The position numbers were made by a program, and so were the translations under genes. A model generated the notes under the pieces. That model searched no databases. It saw only the letters and a list, made by a program, of their open reading frames with translations, and was not told the DNA's origin. DNA of 64,000 nt. It comes from a virus (taxonomy: Duplodnaviria > Caudoviricetes). Of the stretch, positions 22,592-57,002 are shown in pieces (the stretch's first letter is position 1; every line of letters starts with the position of its first letter). The stretch spans positions 160,001-224,000 of IMG/VR virus record IMGVR_UViG_3300018430_000021. One strand, given 5' to 3'.

Positions 22592-25060
22592 ATGATTAAA
22601 AACGTAATTAAGCGAGATAATCGTCGACACGTATTCAATATTTCAAAGGTCTATACAGCAATCGAAAAGGCATTTAAAGAAGTAAATGCAGAAGTAACAG
22701 AAGAAACAATGGACCGACTTGTTGATAGCGTAGTCGAAAAGATTTCTGAAAATAATGCCAAGTCAGCTAAAGTTGAAGAAATCCAGAATGTAATCGAAAT
22801 GACATTGATGGATAACGGATTCGGAGCAGTTGCCAAGGCATTTATTTTATTTAGAGACGATCGTACTCGTGCACGTGAAACTAATTCTGCGATTATTAAG
22901 ACAATCAAGGAAATAACTGAATCTGACATTAAGAGTTCCAACATTTTGCGTGACAACGCCAATGAATCCGGCGCTACTCCTGCGGGTACATACGGAAAGA
23001 TTGCGTCTGAAACTAACAAGATGTATAACCTCTTGAATAATATCAATCGTAAATATGCCCAGGAACATAAGGACGGTCATTTGCATATTCATGACCTTAA
23101 CCAGTACAATTTGACATTTAACTGTCTCTTTGCTCCTGTAGGAAAATTGTTAAAGACTGGTTTCGATTCTGGTACAGGTTATCTTCGTTCTCCGAAGTCC
23201 ATCCAGACCGCTGCGGCTTTGACAGCTGTTATTCTTCAGCTTCAGTCTAACCAGCAGTATGGCGGTATCGCAGACGATAACCTCGATTATGATTTGGCTC
23301 CGTTCGTTGATATTTCTTTCAGAAAGAATCTCAAGAATGAACTTAATCGTTATATCGAATACAATCCGGACCATGAAGACATTGACATTAACGATGTCAC
23401 GAATGTTTCCATGAACTGGCCGGTCGAATTGCTCTATGCTAAGTTCCCGAAGATTTGCGTAGAAAATGCTATTAGAATCACCGATGACGATACTCATCAG
23501 GCTATGGAAGGTCTTATCGGTAACTTGAACTCTCTTCAGTCTCGTTCTGGAAACCAGGTTCCGTTTAGTTCGCTGAACTTCGGTCTCGATACTTCTAATT
23601 GTGGCCGTATGATTAGTAAGAACCTTATTAAGTCCCAGTATGAAGGTCTCGGCGATGGTTTGACAGCTATTTTCCCGATTTTGATTTTTAAGCTGATGAA
23701 GGGTTACACAAAGAATCCGGAAGATCCGAACTATGACTTGTATCTTGACTCCATCAAGTGCCTTGCTCGTCGTTTCTATCCGAACTTCGTCCGTGTAGAC
23801 AGTTCTTTCAACAAGCCGTATATTCGTTATTCTGAAAAGGAACTTGAAGTTTCTGAAAAGACTGTTTCTGTTAAGGTTCGTGGTAAGAATACCGCTGAAA
23901 CTATTTCTACAGAAGACCGTACTTTTGAAACTCCTATCTACGAATATGACGTAGGTGTTGGCGATTATTGGGAAATTACTGGATTCGAGAACGGTAAGAT
24001 GAAGATTCGTCGTCTTATTGAAAATTCTACAGTTTCTACAATGGGATGTCGTACTCGTGTTCTTGGTAATATCAACGGTGTCGAACAGACAACAGGTCGT
24101 GGAAACTTTGCTTTCCATACGATTAACTTGCCTCGCCTTGCTATCGAAGCTCATATCGAAGCAAAGGATCCTGAAGCACGTAAGCAGGTTTTCTTCAAGA
24201 AGCTCGCCGATATGCTCGAAGATGCAAAGAACAGTTTGCTTGACCGTTTTGCATTGATTTCTAACAAGACCTATGAAAACTTCCCGTTCACAATGCAGCA
24301 GGGTCTTTATTTGACTTCTGATGATGAACCGCATGCCGTTACTGATAAGATTGCTAATGTTCTTAAGCAGGCTTCGCTTTCTATCGGTTATGTCGGTCTC
24401 GCAGAAACCATGTTGCTCTTGACCGGTAAGACATACGGTATCGACCACGAAATCGATAACTATGCTTATTCTATCGTAAAGACCATGCGTGAATTCGTTG
24501 ATAAGACACAGAAGGAAACACACCTTAACTGGAGCTGTTTTGCTACTCCGGCTGAAGCTGTTGCCGGTCGTTTCGCGAATATCGATAAGAATCTTTACCA
24601 GAATAATAAGAAACTTGCTGATGTTGATTTGCAGCGTGTATTCGGAAAGGGTTACTACACCAATAGCCACATGCTTGACTATTCTTTGGAAACCTCTCTT
24701 GAAAATAAGATTAAGATGGAAGCACCGTATCACAAGATTACGAACGCTGGCCATATTTTCTATTACAAGTTGAACGGTGACTTGTCCAAGAATCTTGAAG
24801 CTGTCAAGGCTACAATCGATGCCATGTACGATGGTGACTTGGGATATTTCACTTGTACGTTCGATAGCGATACTTGTACCAAGTGTCATTTCCATGGTAT
24901 TATCGATAACGAATGCCCGTGCTGCGGCAACAAGAACGAAGACGAGATTATTCGTGTTAGAAGAATTACTGGATATTTGACTGGTTCACCTAAGAAGACA
25001 ATTTTCAAATCCTGGAATGATGGAAAATTGGCAGAATTGAGGGACCGCCATAATATTTAA
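22592..25060 (+). CDS. nrdD: Anaerobic (class III) ribonucleoside-triphosphate reductase with ATP cone
   Basis: VIKRD ATP cone, HIHDL, MGCRT, YYTNS, CxxC...CxxC zinc site and the RRITGYL glycyl-radical motif. Confidence 0.97.
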   Translation: MIKNVIKRDNRRHVFNISKVYTAIEKAFKEVNAEVTEETMDRLVDSVVEKISENNAKSAKVEEIQNVIEMTLMDNGFGAVAKAFILFRDDRTRARETNSAIIKTIKEITESDIKSSNILRDNANESGATPAGTYGKIASETNKMYNLLNNINRKYAQEHKDGHLHIHDLNQYNLTFNCLFAPVGKLLKTGFDSGTGYLRSPKSIQTAAALTAVILQLQSNQQYGGIADDNLDYDLAPFVDISFRKNLKNELNRYIEYNPDHEDIDINDVTNVSMNWPVELLYAKFPKICVENAIRITDDDTHQAMEGLIGNLNSLQSRSGNQVPFSSLNFGLDTSNCGRMISKNLIKSQYEGLGDGLTAIFPILIFKLMKGYTKNPEDPNYDLYLDSIKCLARRFYPNFVRVDSSFNKPYIRYSEKELEVSEKTVSVKVRGKNTAETISTEDRTFETPIYEYDVGVGDYWEITGFENGKMKIRRLIENSTVSTMGCRTRVLGNINGVEQTTGRGNFAFHTINLPRLAIEAHIEAKDPEARKQVFFKKLADMLEDAKNSLLDRFALISNKTYENFPFTMQQGLYLTSDDEPHAVTDKIANVLKQASLSIGYVGLAETMLLLTGKTYGIDHEIDNYAYSIVKTMREFVDKTQKETHLNWSCFATPAEAVAGRFANIDKNLYQNNKKLADVDLQRVFGKGYYTNSHMLDYSLETSLENKIKMEAPYHKITNAGHIFYYKLNGDLSKNLEAVKATIDAMYDGDLGYFTCTFDSDTCTKCHFHGIIDNECPCCGNKNEDEIIRVRRITGYLTGSPKKTIFKSWNDGKLAELRDRHNI

Positions 25061-51926: not shown

Positions 51927-52691
51927 TTAGCCAAATCTTTTACGGATTGCCGCTTTTTCTACTTTGGTCTGCTTGATACCAAGTTCTTCGCACTTTTCAG
52001 CATCGTTAATAATACGGTCGTAGATTTGACGAGGCGTAGCGTGCATATCCAAATCGTAATCCTTCGGGTGTGCTTCATAATACGGGATAACGAACTTTTC
52101 CACGAATTCTTTTTTATATAACTTATTAATTTCTTTTTTACGCTGATCAATGACCTTACATGCCTGTGCGCGGGTCATACGTTTTCCGTCGACCCACATT
52201 TCATCCATCGGGTCGTCGACATCCTGCATAAGATACTTTTGAACTTCTTTAAGAATCTTAGGACCGTAATTCAACAGATAGAAATAAGAAAAATAGAAAT
52301 GCTTGTCATAACCAAATTCTACGTTAGCACTCTGAGATTGTGCAACGTTTTCATAAGGAATACCAAGTGCAATAGGACATGATAAGGAAAAACGATAAGA
52401 CTTGTATTCATCGCTCGCCCATAGATGAATACAGGCATCACGCCATGAACCTGTATAACATTCGTTATAAAGAGAATTAGCCGTATGCCAGCCGTGTACT
52501 TTTTTAATTTTTGTTTCCGGTAAAAGCAGATAAGCTTCAGCGCCGATATTCTTGAAAGGACAGGCATCATCAAGATGACAATCGGCATATCGATAGTTGC
52601 TGAATTGCTCTTTATTACCATACCCATGTTTGAGAGGCATTATATCTTTAAAAGCTTCGTTGAGTCTTTCAAATGATTTAGTAAAATCCAT
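51927..52691 (-). CDS. Hypothetical protein
   Basis: 254 aa, AAGGA SD, promoter at 52714-52743. Confidence 0.65.
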   Translation of the reverse strand: MDFTKSFERLNEAFKDIMPLKHGYGNKEQFSNYRYADCHLDDACPFKNIGAEAYLLLPETKIKKVHGWHTANSLYNECYTGSWRDACIHLWASDEYKSYRFSLSCPIALGIPYENVAQSQSANVEFGYDKHFYFSYFYLLNYGPKILKEVQKYLMQDVDDPMDEMWVDGKRMTRAQACKVIDQRKKEINKLYKKEFVEKFVIPYYEAHPKDYDLDMHATPRQIYDRIINDAEKCEELGIKQTKVEKAAIRKRFG

Positions 52692-52745
52692 TATGTTTTT
52701 CCTTTTTTATCATAATATAAAAAAAAGAGTTGACTTTCGTCAACC

Positions 52746-53699
52746 CTATAATGTGTAAGTCTTTGCTGAGCCCTTGCCGGTAAAATATACCATACGGTGT
52801 CGCTTATAGGTATTACCGTCTTTACCTTTCCAGCTCGGAGGATAAATCAACTGTGCAAGAGAAATATCATTCTTACCCTTGTTTATACTATCCTTCATTA
52901 TCCACTTGTCCATAAAATATTCAGAAAAACGTCCTTTATTGAATTTGAGTTCGGCCAGGACTTCTTTCTTGTTTTTCTCGATAGCCTTGGCCAGATAGAA
53001 CAGACTTCCACCGGCCGCATATTCAAGATGCAACATTCCTTTGATAGTAGACTTGTCCATGTGTGAAAGAACTTCAGGATCTATCTGTTTCAGTTTCTTG
53101 ATATAATATCGCTTGATAGTTCGGTCAATGTCCTTAGCGGACGTCTCGTCAAGAATCCACTGCGACCAGACAGATTCCAAATCGGTACGCCCGATAGACC
53201 ACCTGATAATATCTTCGATAGTGCCTTTAAACCTTTCACCGCTGTTCTTGTTTACGATAACGATAGGCTTATCATACTTGATAACTTTCTGCATCATGAA
53301 AGCGGTATTGCCGCCGCCGAAATTAAGCCCGCTCGGATTACTTTTTCCGTCCATCTTGTTGTGATAGAAAGAATTGATATTTCCTTCCTTGATGCCGATG
53401 GAACCGTTATAGATTTCGCTTTCGAAGAAGTTATCGAAAACGTCCTGAGTAATCTTTGTCTGGCCGAGAAGACCTTCACGAGGACGTTCTTTCGTTTCCA
53501 TCATGATACTGTGTTTCTTTTCGGTTTCAGGTACGTAATGATACTTGTATTCGAGCATGCAGTAACAACCGAGGAACATTAGACCTGGTAAGATTTCCAT
53601 GACGAAAAACTTTACAACGGCCCAAGGCTTTCTCTTCAGCCAGTACCAAGTGTAAAGGATTGTACATACCAAAAATAATATTAAGAATGTTATAATCAT
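52746..53699 (-). CDS. Membrane-anchored hypothetical protein
   Basis: Two N-terminal TM segments. Promoter at 53710-53738. Confidence 0.65.
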   Translation of the reverse strand: MIITFLILFLVCTILYTWYWLKRKPWAVVKFFVMEILPGLMFLGCYCMLEYKYHYVPETEKKHSIMMETKERPREGLLGQTKITQDVFDNFFESEIYNGSIGIKEGNINSFYHNKMDGKSNPSGLNFGGGNTAFMMQKVIKYDKPIVIVNKNSGERFKGTIEDIIRWSIGRTDLESVWSQWILDETSAKDIDRTIKRYYIKKLKQIDPEVLSHMDKSTIKGMLHLEYAAGGSLFYLAKAIEKNKKEVLAELKFNKGRFSEYFMDKWIMKDSINKGKNDISLAQLIYPPSWKGKDGNTYKRHRMVYFTGKGSAKTYTL

Positions 53700-53715
53700 T
53701 TCGGCCTATAATATA

Positions 53716-53742
53716 GAAAAAGAGTTGACTTTTGTCAACCCT
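53716..53742 (-). terminator. Terminator of tRNA operon overlapping -35 box of next promoter
   Basis: AGGGTTGACAAAAGTCAACTCTTTTT on the minus strand. Confidence 0.75.
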
Positions 53743-53747
53743 TATAG

Positions 53748-53829
53748 CGGAAGATGAGTGACTCGAACACCCAAGCCATGACGGCGGCAACGTTCGAAAT
53801 TGCTGGCTTACCAATTAGCCTAATCTTCC
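53748..53829 (-). tRNA. tRNA-Ser(CGA)
   Basis: GGAAGAT/ATCTTCC acceptor, GCAAT-TTCGAAC-GTTGC anticodon arm, long V arm, TTCGAGT T loop. Confidence 0.9.
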
Positions 53830-53834
53830 ATTAG

Positions 53835-53926
53835 AAGAGGTGGTAGGATTCGAACCCACGGCCCGGGATGATTACCGGATCACTGGAGTTCAAATCCAGC
53901 GCCATAAACCGCTCGGCCACACCTCC
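53835..53926 (-). tRNA. tRNA-Ser(TGA)
   Basis: GGAGGTG/CACCTCT acceptor, CTGGA-TTTGAAC-TCCAG anticodon arm, long V arm, TTCGAAT T loop. Confidence 0.9.
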
Positions 53927-53935
53927 GAAATTTAG

Positions 53936-54021
53936 CTGAGGATGAAAGACTCGAACTTTCAAGCAGATTACTCCACGGCGGCCTTCCAAGCCACTCCCTT
54001 ACCAATTAGGGTTAATCCTCA
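53936..54021 (-). tRNA. tRNA-Ser(GGA)
   Basis: TGAGGAT/ATCCTCA acceptor, GTGGC-TTGGAAG-GCCGC anticodon arm, long V arm. Confidence 0.9.
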
Positions 54022-54025
54022 AAAT

Positions 54026-54184
54026 GAATACATGCAATGTTTTATACTGACGAGACTCGAACTCGCTTCATACGAATTGTAATTGGCATTTGCAAGAGTA
54101 TCTACCAATAAACGTACCCTTTCCTGATACTTTCGGACGCACGTTCTCTCCTACCTTGATCCAATATAGAGCACGCACATATTC
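54026..54184 (-). ncRNA. tRNA-mimic ncRNA (acceptor-like stem + T arm, large insert, extended closing stem)
   Basis: TATATTG/CAGTATA stem stacked on GCGAG-TTCGAGT-CTCGT. Outer stem GAATATGTGC/GCATGTATTC. Confidence 0.6.
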
Positions 54185-54188
54185 TTAG

Positions 54189-54265
54189 TCGGCAACATAG
54201 GACTTGAACCTACATGTAACCATTTACTCTTTCTACGCCTTATCAGAGCGAGGAGATAGATGCCG
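54189..54265 (-). tRNA. Non-canonical tRNA-Ile(GAT)-like RNA, copy 1
   Basis: Acceptor CGGCATC/GTTGCCG, CGCT-CTGATAA-GGCG anticodon arm, GTAGG-TTCAAGT-CCTAT T arm. No D arm in the normal position. Confidence 0.7.
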
Positions 54266-54276
54266 ATAATATTTAG

Positions 54277-54353
54277 TCGGTATCATAGGAATTGAACCTA
54301 CATGCAACCAATTACCCTTTCGACGCCTTATCAGAGCGAGGGGATAGATACCG
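54277..54353 (-). tRNA. Non-canonical tRNA-Ile(GAT)-like RNA, copy 2
   Basis: Acceptor CGGTATC/GATACCG, same anticodon arm, GTAGG-TTCAATT-CCTAT T arm. Covaries with copy 1. Confidence 0.7.
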
Positions 54354-54420
54354 ATAGATATTGACATTTTTCAGTGATCCAGTTATTGGCTTAGATATGT
54401 CCAATGTCAATAATTTTTAG

Positions 54421-54494
54421 TCCCGGAGGTTGGGCTCGAACCAACGACCTTTTGATTATGATTCAAACGCTCTAACCAGCTGAGCTACTCCGGG
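54421..54494 (-). tRNA. tRNA(CAT): elongator Met or Ile2
   Basis: CCCGGAG/CTCCGGG acceptor, GCTC D stem, TTTGA-ATCATAA-TCAAA anticodon arm, TTCGAGC T loop. Confidence 0.9.
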
Positions 54495-54497
54495 AAA

Positions 54498-54559
54498 ATA
54501 GCGAGAAGTATATATTACGGATTTAAAGTCCGTTTTTATATAGGAACTTCTTTTGCTAT
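54498..54559 (-). ncRNA. Conserved-stem hairpin RNA A
   Basis: ATAGCAAAAGAAGTTCCTAT...ACTTCTCGCTAT with apical ACGGA-CTTTAAA-TCCGT. Confidence 0.55.
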
Positions 54560-54569
54560 TAAACTTTTT

Positions 54570-54656
54570 ATAGCGGGATGTAATCGCCATACGGCTTCGG
54601 ATTTGAACCGATAAGGCATGTGAGCCTATTACCAAAATAGGAACATCCTATGCTAT
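54570..54656 (-). ncRNA. Conserved-stem RNA B with T-arm-like hairpin
   Basis: ATAGCATAGGATGTTCCTAT...ACATCCCGCTAT, containing TCGG-TTCAAAT-CCGA. Confidence 0.55.
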
Positions 54657-54660
54657 GTAG

Positions 54661-54750
54661 AGCTATCTGCAGGATTCGAACCTGCGACGGGGATTTTATC
54701 CACAGCGGAGTTGCAGTCCGCTACCTTCGACCGCTCGGTTACAAGACAGC
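54661..54750 (-). tRNA. tRNA-Cys(GCA) with long variable arm
   Basis: GCTGTCT/AGATAGC acceptor, U73, GCGGA-CTGCAAC-TCCGC anticodon arm, GGAT-AAA-ATCC V arm, GCAGG-TTCGAAT-CCTGC T arm. Confidence 0.85.
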
Positions 54751-54761
54751 TTAATTTTAAA

Positions 54762-54885
54762 TTCCACCGCGTGCTTTTACCGAAGAGCCCGCGAAAACTT
54801 CAGTGGCCTACCACCTTGTTGTTTCATACTAAACACGACCGCTGTTTTAAGGCCGCAGCCTTTTTCGCACAGCGTCACGGCGAAC
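54762..54885 (-). ncRNA. GC-rich structured ncRNA of unknown family
   Basis: Nested stems TTCGCCGTG/CGCGGTGGA and GCGAAAA/TTTTCGC enclosing three hairpins. Confidence 0.5.
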
Positions 54886-54893
54886 TATTTTCG

Positions 54894-54980
54894 TGCTAGC
54901 TAAGGGAGTCGAACCCCTGTTGTTAACTCGTAAGAGACGTGATCTACAGTCACGCGCAATCGCCACTCTGCCAAACTAGC
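54894..54980 (-). tRNA. tRNA-Tyr(GTA)
   Basis: GCTAGTT/AGCTAGC acceptor, CGTGA-CTGTAGA-TCACG anticodon arm, long V arm. Confidence 0.88.
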
Positions 54981-54987
54981 ATTTTAG

Positions 54988-55072
54988 TGACAGCGGTAGG
55001 ACTCGAACCTACGGAAGCTCGTTAGAGCGGGAGGGTTACAGCCTCCAGGAATTGCCGCTATCCGACACTGCC
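54988..55072 (-). tRNA. tRNA-Tyr(GTA)
   Basis: GGCAGTG/CGCTGTC acceptor, GGAGG-CTGTAAC-CCTCC anticodon arm, long V arm. Confidence 0.9.
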
Positions 55073-55151
55073 AAATATCGGGCTTTCACCGATTGCCCGA
55101 ACAAACGATCCTATACAACATACGTCTCAAGGGTCTGTTCGATCATATAAT

Positions 55152-55310
55152 AAAAAAATAAAAGCGTCACTTTTCGGTGACGCCTTGAAACTCTATAAAT
55201 GAGTATTCTTGGTGTCACCCACCAGTCTTAATAATATACATGCCATAGATTGAGGATGTGGAGCATCCGCAAATCGAAGAACATTAATATGTATATAACT
55301 GGTGAGTCAT
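55152..55310 (-). promoter_or_regulatory. Leader-peptide transcription attenuator upstream of tRNA operon
   Basis: SD AAAGGA and ATG at 55310. Helix 1:2 (55307-55297 with 55227-55217), antiterminator 2:3 (55219-55211 with 55184-55176), terminator 3:4 GCGTCAC-CGAAAA-GTGACGC plus U tract. Confidence 0.75.
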
Positions 55311-55380
55311 TGCTTTTATCCTTTTAATATTATATATAAAAAATTTTTTGTGTTTTTTGCTTTTTGTTTTAACGTTGTTA

Positions 55381-55413
55381 AATATAGTAAATTGTGTTGT
55401 ACTTGTAAACCCC
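55381..55413 (-). promoter_or_regulatory. Early sigma70-like promoter of leader/tRNA operon
   Basis: GGGGTTTACA-17 nt-TATATT. The same consensus recurs at 38935, 46048, 51113, 52714, 53710, 58928, 60684, 61664 and 62798. Confidence 0.8.
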
Positions 55414-55415
55414 TT

Positions 55416-55655
55416 TTAGAAAAAATTTTTTTCTTCCGAGTTTTTCCCTCTGATTCGGAACCACAAGAATACGACACTGCCAAGCATTATGACACCATGA
55501 ACCAGACATCCGGTGAAGTGTATTATCGACATGGAACCTTTGTGTGGACCTACAACTTCATAAAGATGTTGGTAGTTAAAAATAAACATACCGACATTGA
55601 ATATTATATAGGCCAATACGCCGAGCATCACATAAATCTTTTCTTCTTTCATCAC
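55416..55655 (-). CDS. Small two-TM membrane protein
   Basis: Two hydrophobic segments. Start overlaps the upstream stop codon. Confidence 0.55.
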   Translation of the reverse strand: MMKEEKIYVMLGVLAYIIFNVGMFIFNYQHLYEVVGPHKGSMSIIHFTGCLVHGVIMLGSVVFLWFRIRGKNSEEKNFF

Positions 55656-56461
55656 CAGCTCTCCTCATAGAGTAATACTTCGCACGGCATGCGATCTTCG
55701 TCTCGCCATTTCTTGAATCGTTCCAAGTATGTTTTGATACTGTCAAAATACCAGTAATCATAATGTAAATTACCGAAGAAAAATCCAGGACGTGACGGAA
55801 GATATTTCGCAGCTGCTTCGTTTTGATCTTGCGTAGCAGTCCAGTTGTTATGCCAGTCTACAGCTTCTGGAATATACCAACCTTCGTCGTTAGTTTCTGG
55901 TTTGTTGAATGTTTCTGCGAACGTCTTGAATTCGCCAGCGGCCATAATCTTTTCCATACGGTCGATAATGTCGTTGACATGCTGAAGAGTCAGAATCGCT
56001 AATCCGTCTTCAAGAATTTTGTTATCATAACCAGATTCAACATGCAGCCTTTCAGGAAACGAGTTATAGACATATTGAAGCATCCAGTTCTTTTTTCTCA
56101 TGTATAAAGGTTGATATTGACCTTCATAAGTAAAGCCAATTTCCTTTTTGAGAGACTCATAACGGTTTTCAACATATTCCCAGCCTGAAAGGTCAATGGG
56201 ATTCATGAAATCCTTAATGTCATAGTTAGGTTCGTTGGTACGGTCAAAGTCATAGTCGATACCTTGTTCATTTTTCTCTTCCATGATTTTACATTGTTCG
56301 TTATACCACTTGTTCCATTTCTTACTGGCTTTGTCAAGCGGCTCGCGATACTTTTCACCATAGGCGTTATAGGCAATATCATATTGCTTACTTGCATCGA
56401 GAAATTCTTCGGCTTTTTCTTTCGACGATACCCGATAAAAATAAATGTCTAAACCCATCAT
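55652..56461 (-). CDS. Conserved phage hypothetical (MGLD...Y.SW family)
   Basis: MGLDIY...YMRKKNW...LPSRPGFFFG...YDYWYF...YEESW. GGAGG SD. Confidence 0.7.
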   Translation of the reverse strand: MMGLDIYFYRVSSKEKAEEFLDASKQYDIAYNAYGEKYREPLDKASKKWNKWYNEQCKIMEEKNEQGIDYDFDRTNEPNYDIKDFMNPIDLSGWEYVENRYESLKKEIGFTYEGQYQPLYMRKKNWMLQYVYNSFPERLHVESGYDNKILEDGLAILTLQHVNDIIDRMEKIMAAGEFKTFAETFNKPETNDEGWYIPEAVDWHNNWTATQDQNEAAAKYLPSRPGFFFGNLHYDYWYFDSIKTYLERFKKWRDEDRMPCEVLLYEESW

Positions 56462-56582
56462 TCCTCCGATGGATATTCGTTTCTTATAGTTTCGAATTCG
56501 CGTTGTTGTTTTTCAACATCTACACGTTCGAACTTTACGCCTTCGCCTAATTCTTCTTTAGTTTCTTCGTCCATAAAACCTC

Positions 56583-57002
56583 CTAGAACATCTGGCCGAC
56601 AGCTTCGATATAGATTTCGAACCAGTATTTATCTTGTTCATCCTTTCTCAGCTTAACGATGAGTTTCGGAGAGATGATTTCCGGATTATCTTCCAATAAG
56701 TACATGTTGACTTCTTCGGTCAATATTCCTGCATCATCGTAATAGGTATTATTTTCCAGATGTTCTGTTTCGTCATATTGCCAGTTACTTTCGTATTTCT
56801 CGATAAGGTCTGTACAGACTTTATATATTACTTCGAGAAGCGAACCTGCGGAAACCGGATCCTCGTCTGTACCTGACCATTGCAGTTTAAGCCTACGGGC
56901 CAAATCAACCGCACTGTCAAGTTCAAAAGCTTCTACGGATTCAATCAATATGTTATGCCATTTATTCCAATCAATAGTCATGTTAACCTCGGTTTTCTCC
57001 AA
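56583..57002 (-). CDS. Acidic hypothetical protein
   Basis: 139-aa ORF in the early operon. Confidence 0.6.
   Translation of the reverse strand: MEKTEVNMTIDWNKWHNILIESVEAFELDSAVDLARRLKLQWSGTDEDPVSAGSLLEVIYKVCTDLIEKYESNWQYDETEHLENNTYYDDAGILTEEVNMYLLEDNPEIISPKLIVKLRKDEQDKYWFEIYIEAVGQMF

Follow-up and report, generated by a model that had tools for sequence, protein, structure and literature searches.

Transcription of tRNA genes is generally held to be set at the promoter, through growth rate and stringent control. Here we describe a tRNA array of a Caudoviricetes phage that is separated from its promoter by a short open reading frame (ORF) and an intrinsic terminator, an arrangement resembling the leader-peptide attenuators of amino acid biosynthesis operons. 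The array lies within a 64,000-nucleotide (nt) stretch, referred to here as the window, which corresponds to bases 160001-224000 of the 291,102-bp IMG/VR record IMGVR_UViG_3300018430_000021 (38.7% G+C; estimated 70% complete). ARAGORN detects 42 tRNA genes across the whole record. Coordinates of this leader and its array are window positions on the minus strand, while coordinates prefixed G000 refer to the whole record.

The locus opens with a sigma-70-type promoter (55381-55409) comprising a -35 box TTTACA (55409-55404), a 17-nt spacer and a -10 box TATATT (55386-55381), with 10 of 12 positions matching. Downstream of the promoter is a conserved A/T-rich module (55319-55347), made up of an A-run, a T-run and TATATATAATA, which ends in the Shine-Dalgarno sequence AAAGGA (55324-55319), 8 nt short of an ATG at 55310. 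The leader frame that begins here spans 32 codons (55215-55310) and closes with TGA (55217-55215). Its codons 2-5 constitute segment 1 (55297-55307), which pairs with 55227-55217 near the ORF end. Segment 2 (55211-55219), the 5' strand of the putative antiterminator, spans the TGA stop and is invariant in 11 homologs. An intrinsic terminator hairpin follows (55161-55186), with a 10-bp stem and a 6-nt loop; its 5' arm (55184-55176) is designated segment 3, and a T-tract (55150-55160) is read directly after the hairpin. The promoter, Shine-Dalgarno site, start codon, quoted frame, hairpin and T-tract (55186-55150) are thus all present as the initial annotation of this locus had described them. 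Its codon count for the leader is likewise exact: in codons 6-27, 17 of 22 encode Tyr (four), Cys (three), Ser by TCN (five, with all four TCN kinds and no AGY), Ile (four) or Met (one).

A conserved 77-nt spacer (55073-55149), which can form two hairpins (z = -1.7), connects the attenuator to the first tRNA gene, and no convincing promoter was found within it. The best candidate between the attenuator and the first tRNA-Tyr, GTGACG-17-TATGAT, matches at 9 of 12 positions, overlaps the terminator and varies in spacing among relatives, and we consider a promoter here unlikely. The array itself, termed array A, comprises two tRNA-Tyr (GTA) genes (54987-55072 and 54893-54980), an unusually long tRNA-Cys (GCA) of 91 nt (54660-54750; 36.5 bits), a tRNA with anticodon CAT (54420-54494; 68.8 bits) that would be Met, or Ile2 if modified, and three tRNA-Ser genes with anticodons GGA (53935-54021), TGA (53834-53926) and CGA (53747-53829), the last gene of the array. 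All seven are called by both ARAGORN and Rfam. Two further elements stand between the CAT and GGA genes, a tRNA-Ile(GAU)-like element (54277-54354) and its tandem copy (54189-54266), each with an acceptor stem, a CUGAUAA loop and a T arm. The CCC/GGG helix of one is CTC/GAG in the other, and in relatives this site is occupied by a canonical tRNA-Ile(GAT). The anticodon list first proposed for the array therefore stands for the seven called genes, while its two GAT tRNAs are uncalled and non-canonical. The operon closes with a terminator (53720-53743) that overlaps the promoter of the next gene (TTGACA-17-TATATT, 53738-53710).

The leader frame of the window is interrupted at codon 9 by an in-frame TAA (55284-55286), which overlaps an ATG in the +1 frame (TAATG) and which the initial annotation had read through without comment. 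This codon differs by a single base from the TCA (Ser) found in near-identical contigs: L034 and L039 share 92-98% identity with the locus, and between the Shine-Dalgarno site and the terminator they differ from it only by TCA for TAA and by a T-tract 2 nt shorter. Moreover, the A-type frame is uninterrupted in all 12 homologous loci (L034, L039, L011, L022, L030 and seven further metagenome loci). By this comparison the TAA appears to be a single C-to-A change, which may be an uncommon allele or an artifact of assembly, and the functional form of the leader is, judging by its homologs, the 31-codon ORF. Decoding of the TAA through stop reassignment or a suppressor tRNA was considered and rejected: ARAGORN at normal stringency finds no tRNA with a stop-reading anticodon in the genome, and the relatives have TCA. 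Among the leaders described below, TAG closes B-D and TAA closes those of alaS and the D variant, while the window's leader ends in TGA; all three stop codons terminate leaders, so none looks reassigned. A ribosome terminating at the TAATG sequence (55281-55289) could restart in the +1 frame, translating 18 codons and ending 13 nt before the TGA.

Leader codons and array anticodons

The promoter and 5' untranslated region (UTR) module recurs before three other tRNA arrays of this genome, termed B, C and D, and in each case is followed by an ORF of 28-37 codons and a hairpin with a T-tract. The leader of array B, which encodes tRNAs for Trp, Leu (six genes) and Ser(GCT), contains 12 Leu codons, five Ser codons (all AGY) and one Trp codon. 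Array C (Asp, Lys(CTT), Gly and His) is preceded by a leader containing Asp, His, Gly, five Lys (all AAG) and CGN Arg codons, and array D (Phe, Glu and Ala) by a leader containing Ala, Glu and Phe codons. Every leader was scored against every array by simple wobble rules, with the codon usage of 159 long ORFs as background. Array A reads 17 of the 29 sense codons in leader A, compared with a background of 18.8% (P = 2e-6); in the other two frames of leader A, 5/31 and 7/31 codons are matched. The own-array match is 18/27 for leader B (P = 1e-11), 21/36 for leader D (P = 3e-8) and 21/32 for leader C (P = 6e-8), the last falling to 17/32 once an ambiguous tRNA counted as Arg(ACG) is dropped. None of leaders A-D shows enrichment in its other two frames. 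The full matrix of leaders and arrays has no off-diagonal enrichment, and its diagonal sums to 77, while any other assignment of leaders to arrays yields at most 47.

The correspondence extends to the choice between synonymous codons. Leader A encodes Ser only by TCN and array A contains only TCN readers, while leader B uses only AGY and the sole Ser tRNA of array B is Ser(GCT). In the same manner, Lys is encoded only by AAG in leader C, and Lys(CTT) is the only Lys tRNA of array C. The spacing of these operons is also informative: in arrays B, C and D the U-tract is followed after 0-2 nt by the first tRNA gene, with no promoter-like site between leader and tRNA, so transcription of these arrays must cross the terminator. 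A spacer like the 77-nt one of array A is absent from types B-D.

To catalogue relatives, we used the conserved 5' UTR module as a search pattern in IMG/VR. The pattern retrieved 21 loci, located on contigs of up to 424 kb, at each of which the module is followed by an ATG, a leader of one of these types and its matching array. The 23 leader-array pairs at these loci have a mean own-array match of 0.53, compared with 0.10 across types. In all, the same leaders were found at 31 related loci, together with a fifth type that is rich in Asn, Thr and Pro codons and stands before an Asn-Asn-Pro-Pro-Pro-Thr array. The leader-controlled arrays jointly cover all 20 amino acids. Two patterns of variation among these relatives bear on what is being selected. 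All seven complete A-type arrays preceded by a leader with a CAG-CAG pair end in tRNA-Gln(CTG), and this gene is absent from both complete arrays (the window and L034) that follow a window-type leader without CAG-CAG. The C leaders, meanwhile, have undergone chemically radical changes (His/Lys, Lys/Asp, Asp/Gly and His/Arg), all of which remain within the set of amino acids served by the array. These substitutions and the co-occurrence of Gln codons with a Gln tRNA suggest selection on codon identity rather than on the peptide. The co-variation of leader codons with array anticodons that the initial annotation anticipated in related phages is thus borne out by the four leaders of this genome, the 23 relative pairs and the tracking of Gln. 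Overall, the codon match is strong, not perfect.

The same design also precedes an aminoacyl-tRNA synthetase gene. Outside the window, alaS (G000 278787-280124, minus strand; L008:1555-2889:-) encodes an AlaRS catalytic domain (Pfam PF01411, E = 1e-183), and its leader (ATG near G000 280266) contains four consecutive Ala codons followed by a terminator of the B-D family. A scan for the motif shared by this terminator family picked out exactly the attenuators of B, C, D and alaS; a generic genome-wide scan for short ORFs with hairpins was too strict, recovering only one known leader, and was dropped. The phage AlaRS is itself free of alanine, with none in 445 residues, compared with 5.5% in other long ORFs (P = 1e-11). 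An alanine-free AlaRS suggests that Ala-tRNA becomes severely limiting in some states of infection.

Pairing between leader ends and terminator arms

The 236-nt leader A folds with z = -6.5, and the alternative helices that the initial annotation had drawn by analogy with trp, 1:2 and 2:3, both appear in its predicted folds. Segment 2, GGTGACACC, pairs with the 5' arm of the terminator, GGCGTCACC, with a duplex energy of -10.0 kcal/mol that is reached by 38 of 2000 shuffles. This complementarity is a general property of these leaders. Across all six types, the final codons of the ORF, either including the stop or adjoining it, are complementary to the terminator 5' arm located 21-32 nt downstream, and this is so even though the terminators of A, of B and of the C/D/E group differ in sequence. 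The duplex energies range from -10 to -13.5 kcal/mol and are equalled by 3-39 of 2000 shuffles in five of the six types. Each ORF-end pairing is stronger than that of any other site in its ORF, and in types A and B it is specific to the leader's own terminator. In type A, all 10 terminator pairs form in 11/11 aligned homologs, and the core of the segment 1 helix pairs in 11/11 sequences of alignment A3. The antiterminated fold is 80% paired across the A family, compared with 34-45% in slid controls, and four of its pairs have changed on both sides.

We also folded the transcript as it would exist before the terminator 3' arm is made. In this RNA the terminator's 5' arm is predicted to be bound to the end of the ORF, except when the A site of the ribosome is within approximately 5 codons of the stop. 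For types B-D, whether the 1:2 helix excludes the antiterminator depends on the inclusion of the 3' arm. In type A the trp-type logic, in which 1:2 excludes 2:3, was not reproduced, as the two helices occupy adjacent, non-overlapping bases; with the two helices compatible, the termination that trp leaders undergo by default when untranslated is not reproduced either.

The proposed attenuator and its alternatives

These data make it likely that the leader and terminator form a ribosome-mediated transcription attenuator, which couples the Tyr/Cys/Met/Ile/Ser(TCN) tRNA array to the decoding speed of the same codons. In the model we propose, host RNA polymerase would start at the sigma-70-type promoter and transcribe the short ORF with its Shine-Dalgarno site, the last codons and stop of which (segment 2) could pair with the 5' arm (segment 3) of the terminator 28 nt downstream. 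A ribosome that proceeds unhindered to the stop would cover segment 2, allowing the terminator to form and ending transcription before the tRNAs. Conversely, a ribosome lagging at Tyr, Cys, Ser-TCN, Ile or Met codons would leave segment 2 free to pair with segment 3, such that no terminator forms and the array is transcribed. The new tRNAs would then read those very codons, closing the loop of a negative-feedback supply system. The design would be repeated for the Leu/Ser-AGY/Trp, Asp/Lys/Gly/His(/Arg) and Ala/Glu/Phe arrays, for the Asn/Pro/Thr arrays of relatives and for the AlaRS gene. What the sequences show directly is the layout of the locus, the codon match, the conservation, the complementarity and, for three arrays, the lack of space for a further promoter; translation of the leader, the direction of the switch and its physiological trigger are the parts of this model that we infer.

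A number of observations weigh against such an attenuator. Taken literally, the window's leader is an 8-codon ORF, and 15 of its 17 matched codons lie after the TAA. Leader A also contains Thr, Gly, Lys, His, Gln and Leu codons without a cognate tRNA in its array, and the two GAT elements, in which the D arm is missing, are called by neither ARAGORN nor Rfam RF00005. The other arrays have mismatches of their own. The tRNA at the Arg position of the genome's array C scores 33.6 bits and has an unclear anticodon loop; among relatives, tRNA-Arg(ACG) is found in several C arrays and several others have no called Arg(ACG). D leaders contain CGT codons with no Arg tRNA in the array, D-variant leaders contain Ile and Asn codons for which the array provides no tRNA, and one D-variant array, that of L016, lacks a Val tRNA. 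Owing to this partial correspondence, Val codons and tRNA-Val in the D variants were not used as evidence. The folding predictions are also less than straightforward. When the complete terminator is folded at equilibrium with a mask for the ribosome, it forms at nearly every ribosome position; since equilibrium folding favors the terminator, the switch must be kinetic. The untranslated RNA is predicted to be antiterminated before the 3' arm exists, and the 1:2 and 2:3 helices of type A coexist in the predicted fold on their adjacent bases. Finally, ribosome-mediated attenuation needs the coupling of transcription to translation, which is not present in all bacteria.

The TAA raises the further prospect that the sensor is dead in this genome, i.e. 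that the stop is real and array A is always on or always off. If so, the ribosome would never reach segment 2 and constitutive read-through might be expected, a prediction we hold with low confidence. The TAA is in the record, and the lack of a stop-reading tRNA or a reassigned stop codon leaves it without an obvious means of being decoded. Set against this, the rest of the sequence from the Shine-Dalgarno site to the terminator is identical to that of the TCA contigs, and 15 of the 22 codons downstream of the TAA are still matched by the array. That identity and the retained match imply that the TAA arose very recently, is a minority allele or stems from misassembly, and we regard a dead sensor as possible but doubtful. 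A different account would keep the ORF functional and move its effect away from termination: leader translation might govern the processing or stability of the tRNA precursor, for example by making the hairpin more or less accessible to RNase E, RNase III or RNase P. In three arrays the hairpin and U-tract lead directly into the first tRNA, so its 5' processing must take place at this junction, and equilibrium folding alone predicts no switch. Every hairpin, however, is GC-rich and followed by a T run, the signature of an intrinsic terminator, and the alternative pairing specifically takes the hairpin's 5' arm, which makes control through processing unlikely. Even less probable, to the point of being very hard to sustain, is that the short ORF and terminator are a separate unit encoding a micro-protein or small RNA, with the tRNAs expressed from their own promoter and the terminator acting as an insulator. 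The 77-nt spacer of array A and the weak 9/12 promoter-like match overlapping its terminator would accommodate this arrangement, but the spacing of that match is not conserved, and arrays B, C and D have no room for a promoter in the 0-2 nt between U-tract and tRNA. Nor would a separate unit explain the array-specific codon match or the complementarity between ORF end and terminator arm in every type, and the chemistry of the peptide changes freely.

For a codon-sensing attenuator of this kind, counter-defense against anticodon nucleases was the purpose suggested in the initial annotation, and the trigger could be a defense nuclease, host shut-off, demand or a mismatch with the host tRNA pool. 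The broader reading that we moderately favor is that a clade of giant phages from anaerobic gut- or rumen-type samples carries a near-complete tRNA set in approximately five codon-matched leader operons. With these, the phage would measure which decoding capacities are missing, be it through defense nucleases, shut-off or a foreign tRNA pool, and transcribe only the missing tRNAs under negative feedback, the alanine-free AlaRS extending the same logic to charging. A reading that falls slightly short of probable retains the switch and replaces the defense signal with another: the leaders would tune tRNA supply to demand, whether this is created by the translation of late genes, by a loss of host tRNAs that the phage causes or by differences in tRNA pool between hosts, or would report aminoacylation and amino acid starvation. 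Coverage of all 20 amino acids is more suggestive of control over supply in general than of a response to a single anticodon nuclease, and AlaRS, an enzyme that charges tRNA, is under the same design. Moreover, the ribosome senses the availability of ternary complex and cannot tell its causes apart. Conversely, extra tRNA is of no help under amino acid starvation, and the alanine-free AlaRS argues for a severe and specific shortage of Ala-tRNA, which fits targeted loss as well as demand.

Known systems and further elements of the tRNA regions

The closest match among known systems is provided by the ilvGMEDA (Ile/Leu/Val) and thr (Thr/Ile) leaders, which likewise comprise a promoter, a multi-amino-acid ORF led by a Shine-Dalgarno site and an intrinsic terminator, the 5' arm of which alternatively pairs with the ORF end such that ribosome position decides the outcome. 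Unlike these, the phage leaders would govern tRNA genes rather than biosynthetic enzymes, meaning that the product would act directly on the sensor. The phage leaders would also sense 3-6 amino acids at once and form a parallel set of sensors, and they spread their regulatory codons over most of the ORF. No sequence relation to ilv or thr was found, as no Rfam leader family matched: cmscan of 52000-57000 with E up to 1 returned only tRNAs and three weak unrelated matches. With the single-amino-acid trp, his, leu and pheA leaders, the locus has in common the 1:2, 2:3 and 3:4 helices and a stop codon positioned such that a ribosome terminating there would cover segment 2; it differs in that its 1:2 and 2:3 helices are adjacent and can coexist, and termination in the absence of translation is not predicted. 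The alaS leader follows the logic of the E. coli pheST attenuator, in which the pheM leader and a terminator precede a synthetase, here with Ala codons. pheM-pheST governs a synthetase and not tRNA genes, and the phage AlaRS is distinguished by being free of the amino acid that is sensed. T-box riboswitches also tie read-through to the state of a specific tRNA by a choice between terminator and antiterminator. However, they bind uncharged tRNA directly through a specifier loop and the T-box sequence, without translation, while the phage element has an ORF and the T-box model gave no match in the same cmscan.

Phage tRNAs such as those of T4 and T5 replace host tRNAs lost to anticodon nucleases or shut-off (PrrC, PARIS and retron-type systems), and are likewise a phage-encoded decoding supply during infection. 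To our knowledge, the reports on T4 and T5 concern tRNAs and anticodon-loop changes, and we know of none describing codon-sensing control of their transcription. Full-text searches found no publication on leader-peptide attenuation of tRNA operons, in phage or cell, although absence from the library searched is not proof. In a blastn search for cultured relatives among 50,697 phage records, the locus matched only at the level of tRNAs (75-80% identity), and no match extended over the leader. If the model is correct, control of tRNA genes by a leader peptide that gauges how fast those same tRNAs decode it would constitute a new regulatory loop, and the broader reading would make it a self-tuning translation-supply system of a kind not known from any virus or cell. 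The presence of dozens of tRNAs in large phages, and the timing of their use, are usually explained from codon usage alone; the model would bear on both. The model predicts that loss of one tRNA family induces one array, and the leaders would mark those phages that expect tRNA-targeting defense or shut-off, with the alanine-free AlaRS hinting at severe and specific shortages. As the leaders are small, modular and apparently orthogonal (at least five codon sets), they could also serve as natural sensors of tRNA availability.

Leader types A-D all retain the A-run/T-run/TATATATAATA module (55320-55347), as does one of two E-type leaders inspected; in arrays C and D a long distance separates it from the sigma-70-type promoter. 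The module may load ribosomes, act as a pause site or serve as a second promoter. Elsewhere in the window, most other large ORFs match no PHROG family; an NrdD-like anaerobic ribonucleotide reductase (22592-25060, plus strand; PHROG 487, E = 3.5e-170) points to an anaerobic host.

Array A itself contains three stretches of 140-170 nt (54751-54892, 54495-54659 and 54022-54188) in which neither a tRNA nor an Rfam family is called. Two of the three carry a T-arm-like GGTTCAAATCC or GAGTTCGAGTCTC and receive weak tRNA-like calls from ARAGORN under relaxed settings. Of the uncalled spacers of the array, only 54510-54659 folds better than its shuffles (z = -2.4, with 3/200 as good), the other three having z from -0.2 to -1.7. 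The motif GTTCCTAT occurs in 12 minus-strand copies in the genome, 9 of which are inside tRNA regions (window 54540-54547 and 54637-54644; G000 272741, 278371, 278486, 278731, 286571, 286884 and 289143), often with the purine-rich context ...GCA.A.GA. in front of it. The motif could mark a site of processing, or the beginning of a small RNA not yet recognized.

In array C, an insertion of approximately 830 nt with promoter-like sites (G000 271518-272347) separates the first and second tRNA-Asp genes, which are approximately 70 nt apart in relatives. Two tRNA genes with six-base anticodon loops (G000 277468-277540 and 272656-272729, minus strand) are reported by ARAGORN as 'tRNA-???' with a two-letter anticodon. 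Equivalents are found in L013, L015-L018, L021, L023, L024, L028 and L029, and one such gene is conserved in the interval that separates the promoter from leader C, directly before the leader. These may be non-decoding tRNAs or decoys. Lastly, two tRNA-like genes (G000 278317-278429 and 278560-278675, minus strand) contain insertions of 24-33 nt in the anticodon region and are called as intron-bearing by relaxed ARAGORN; both are upstream of leader D, each with its own consensus promoter.

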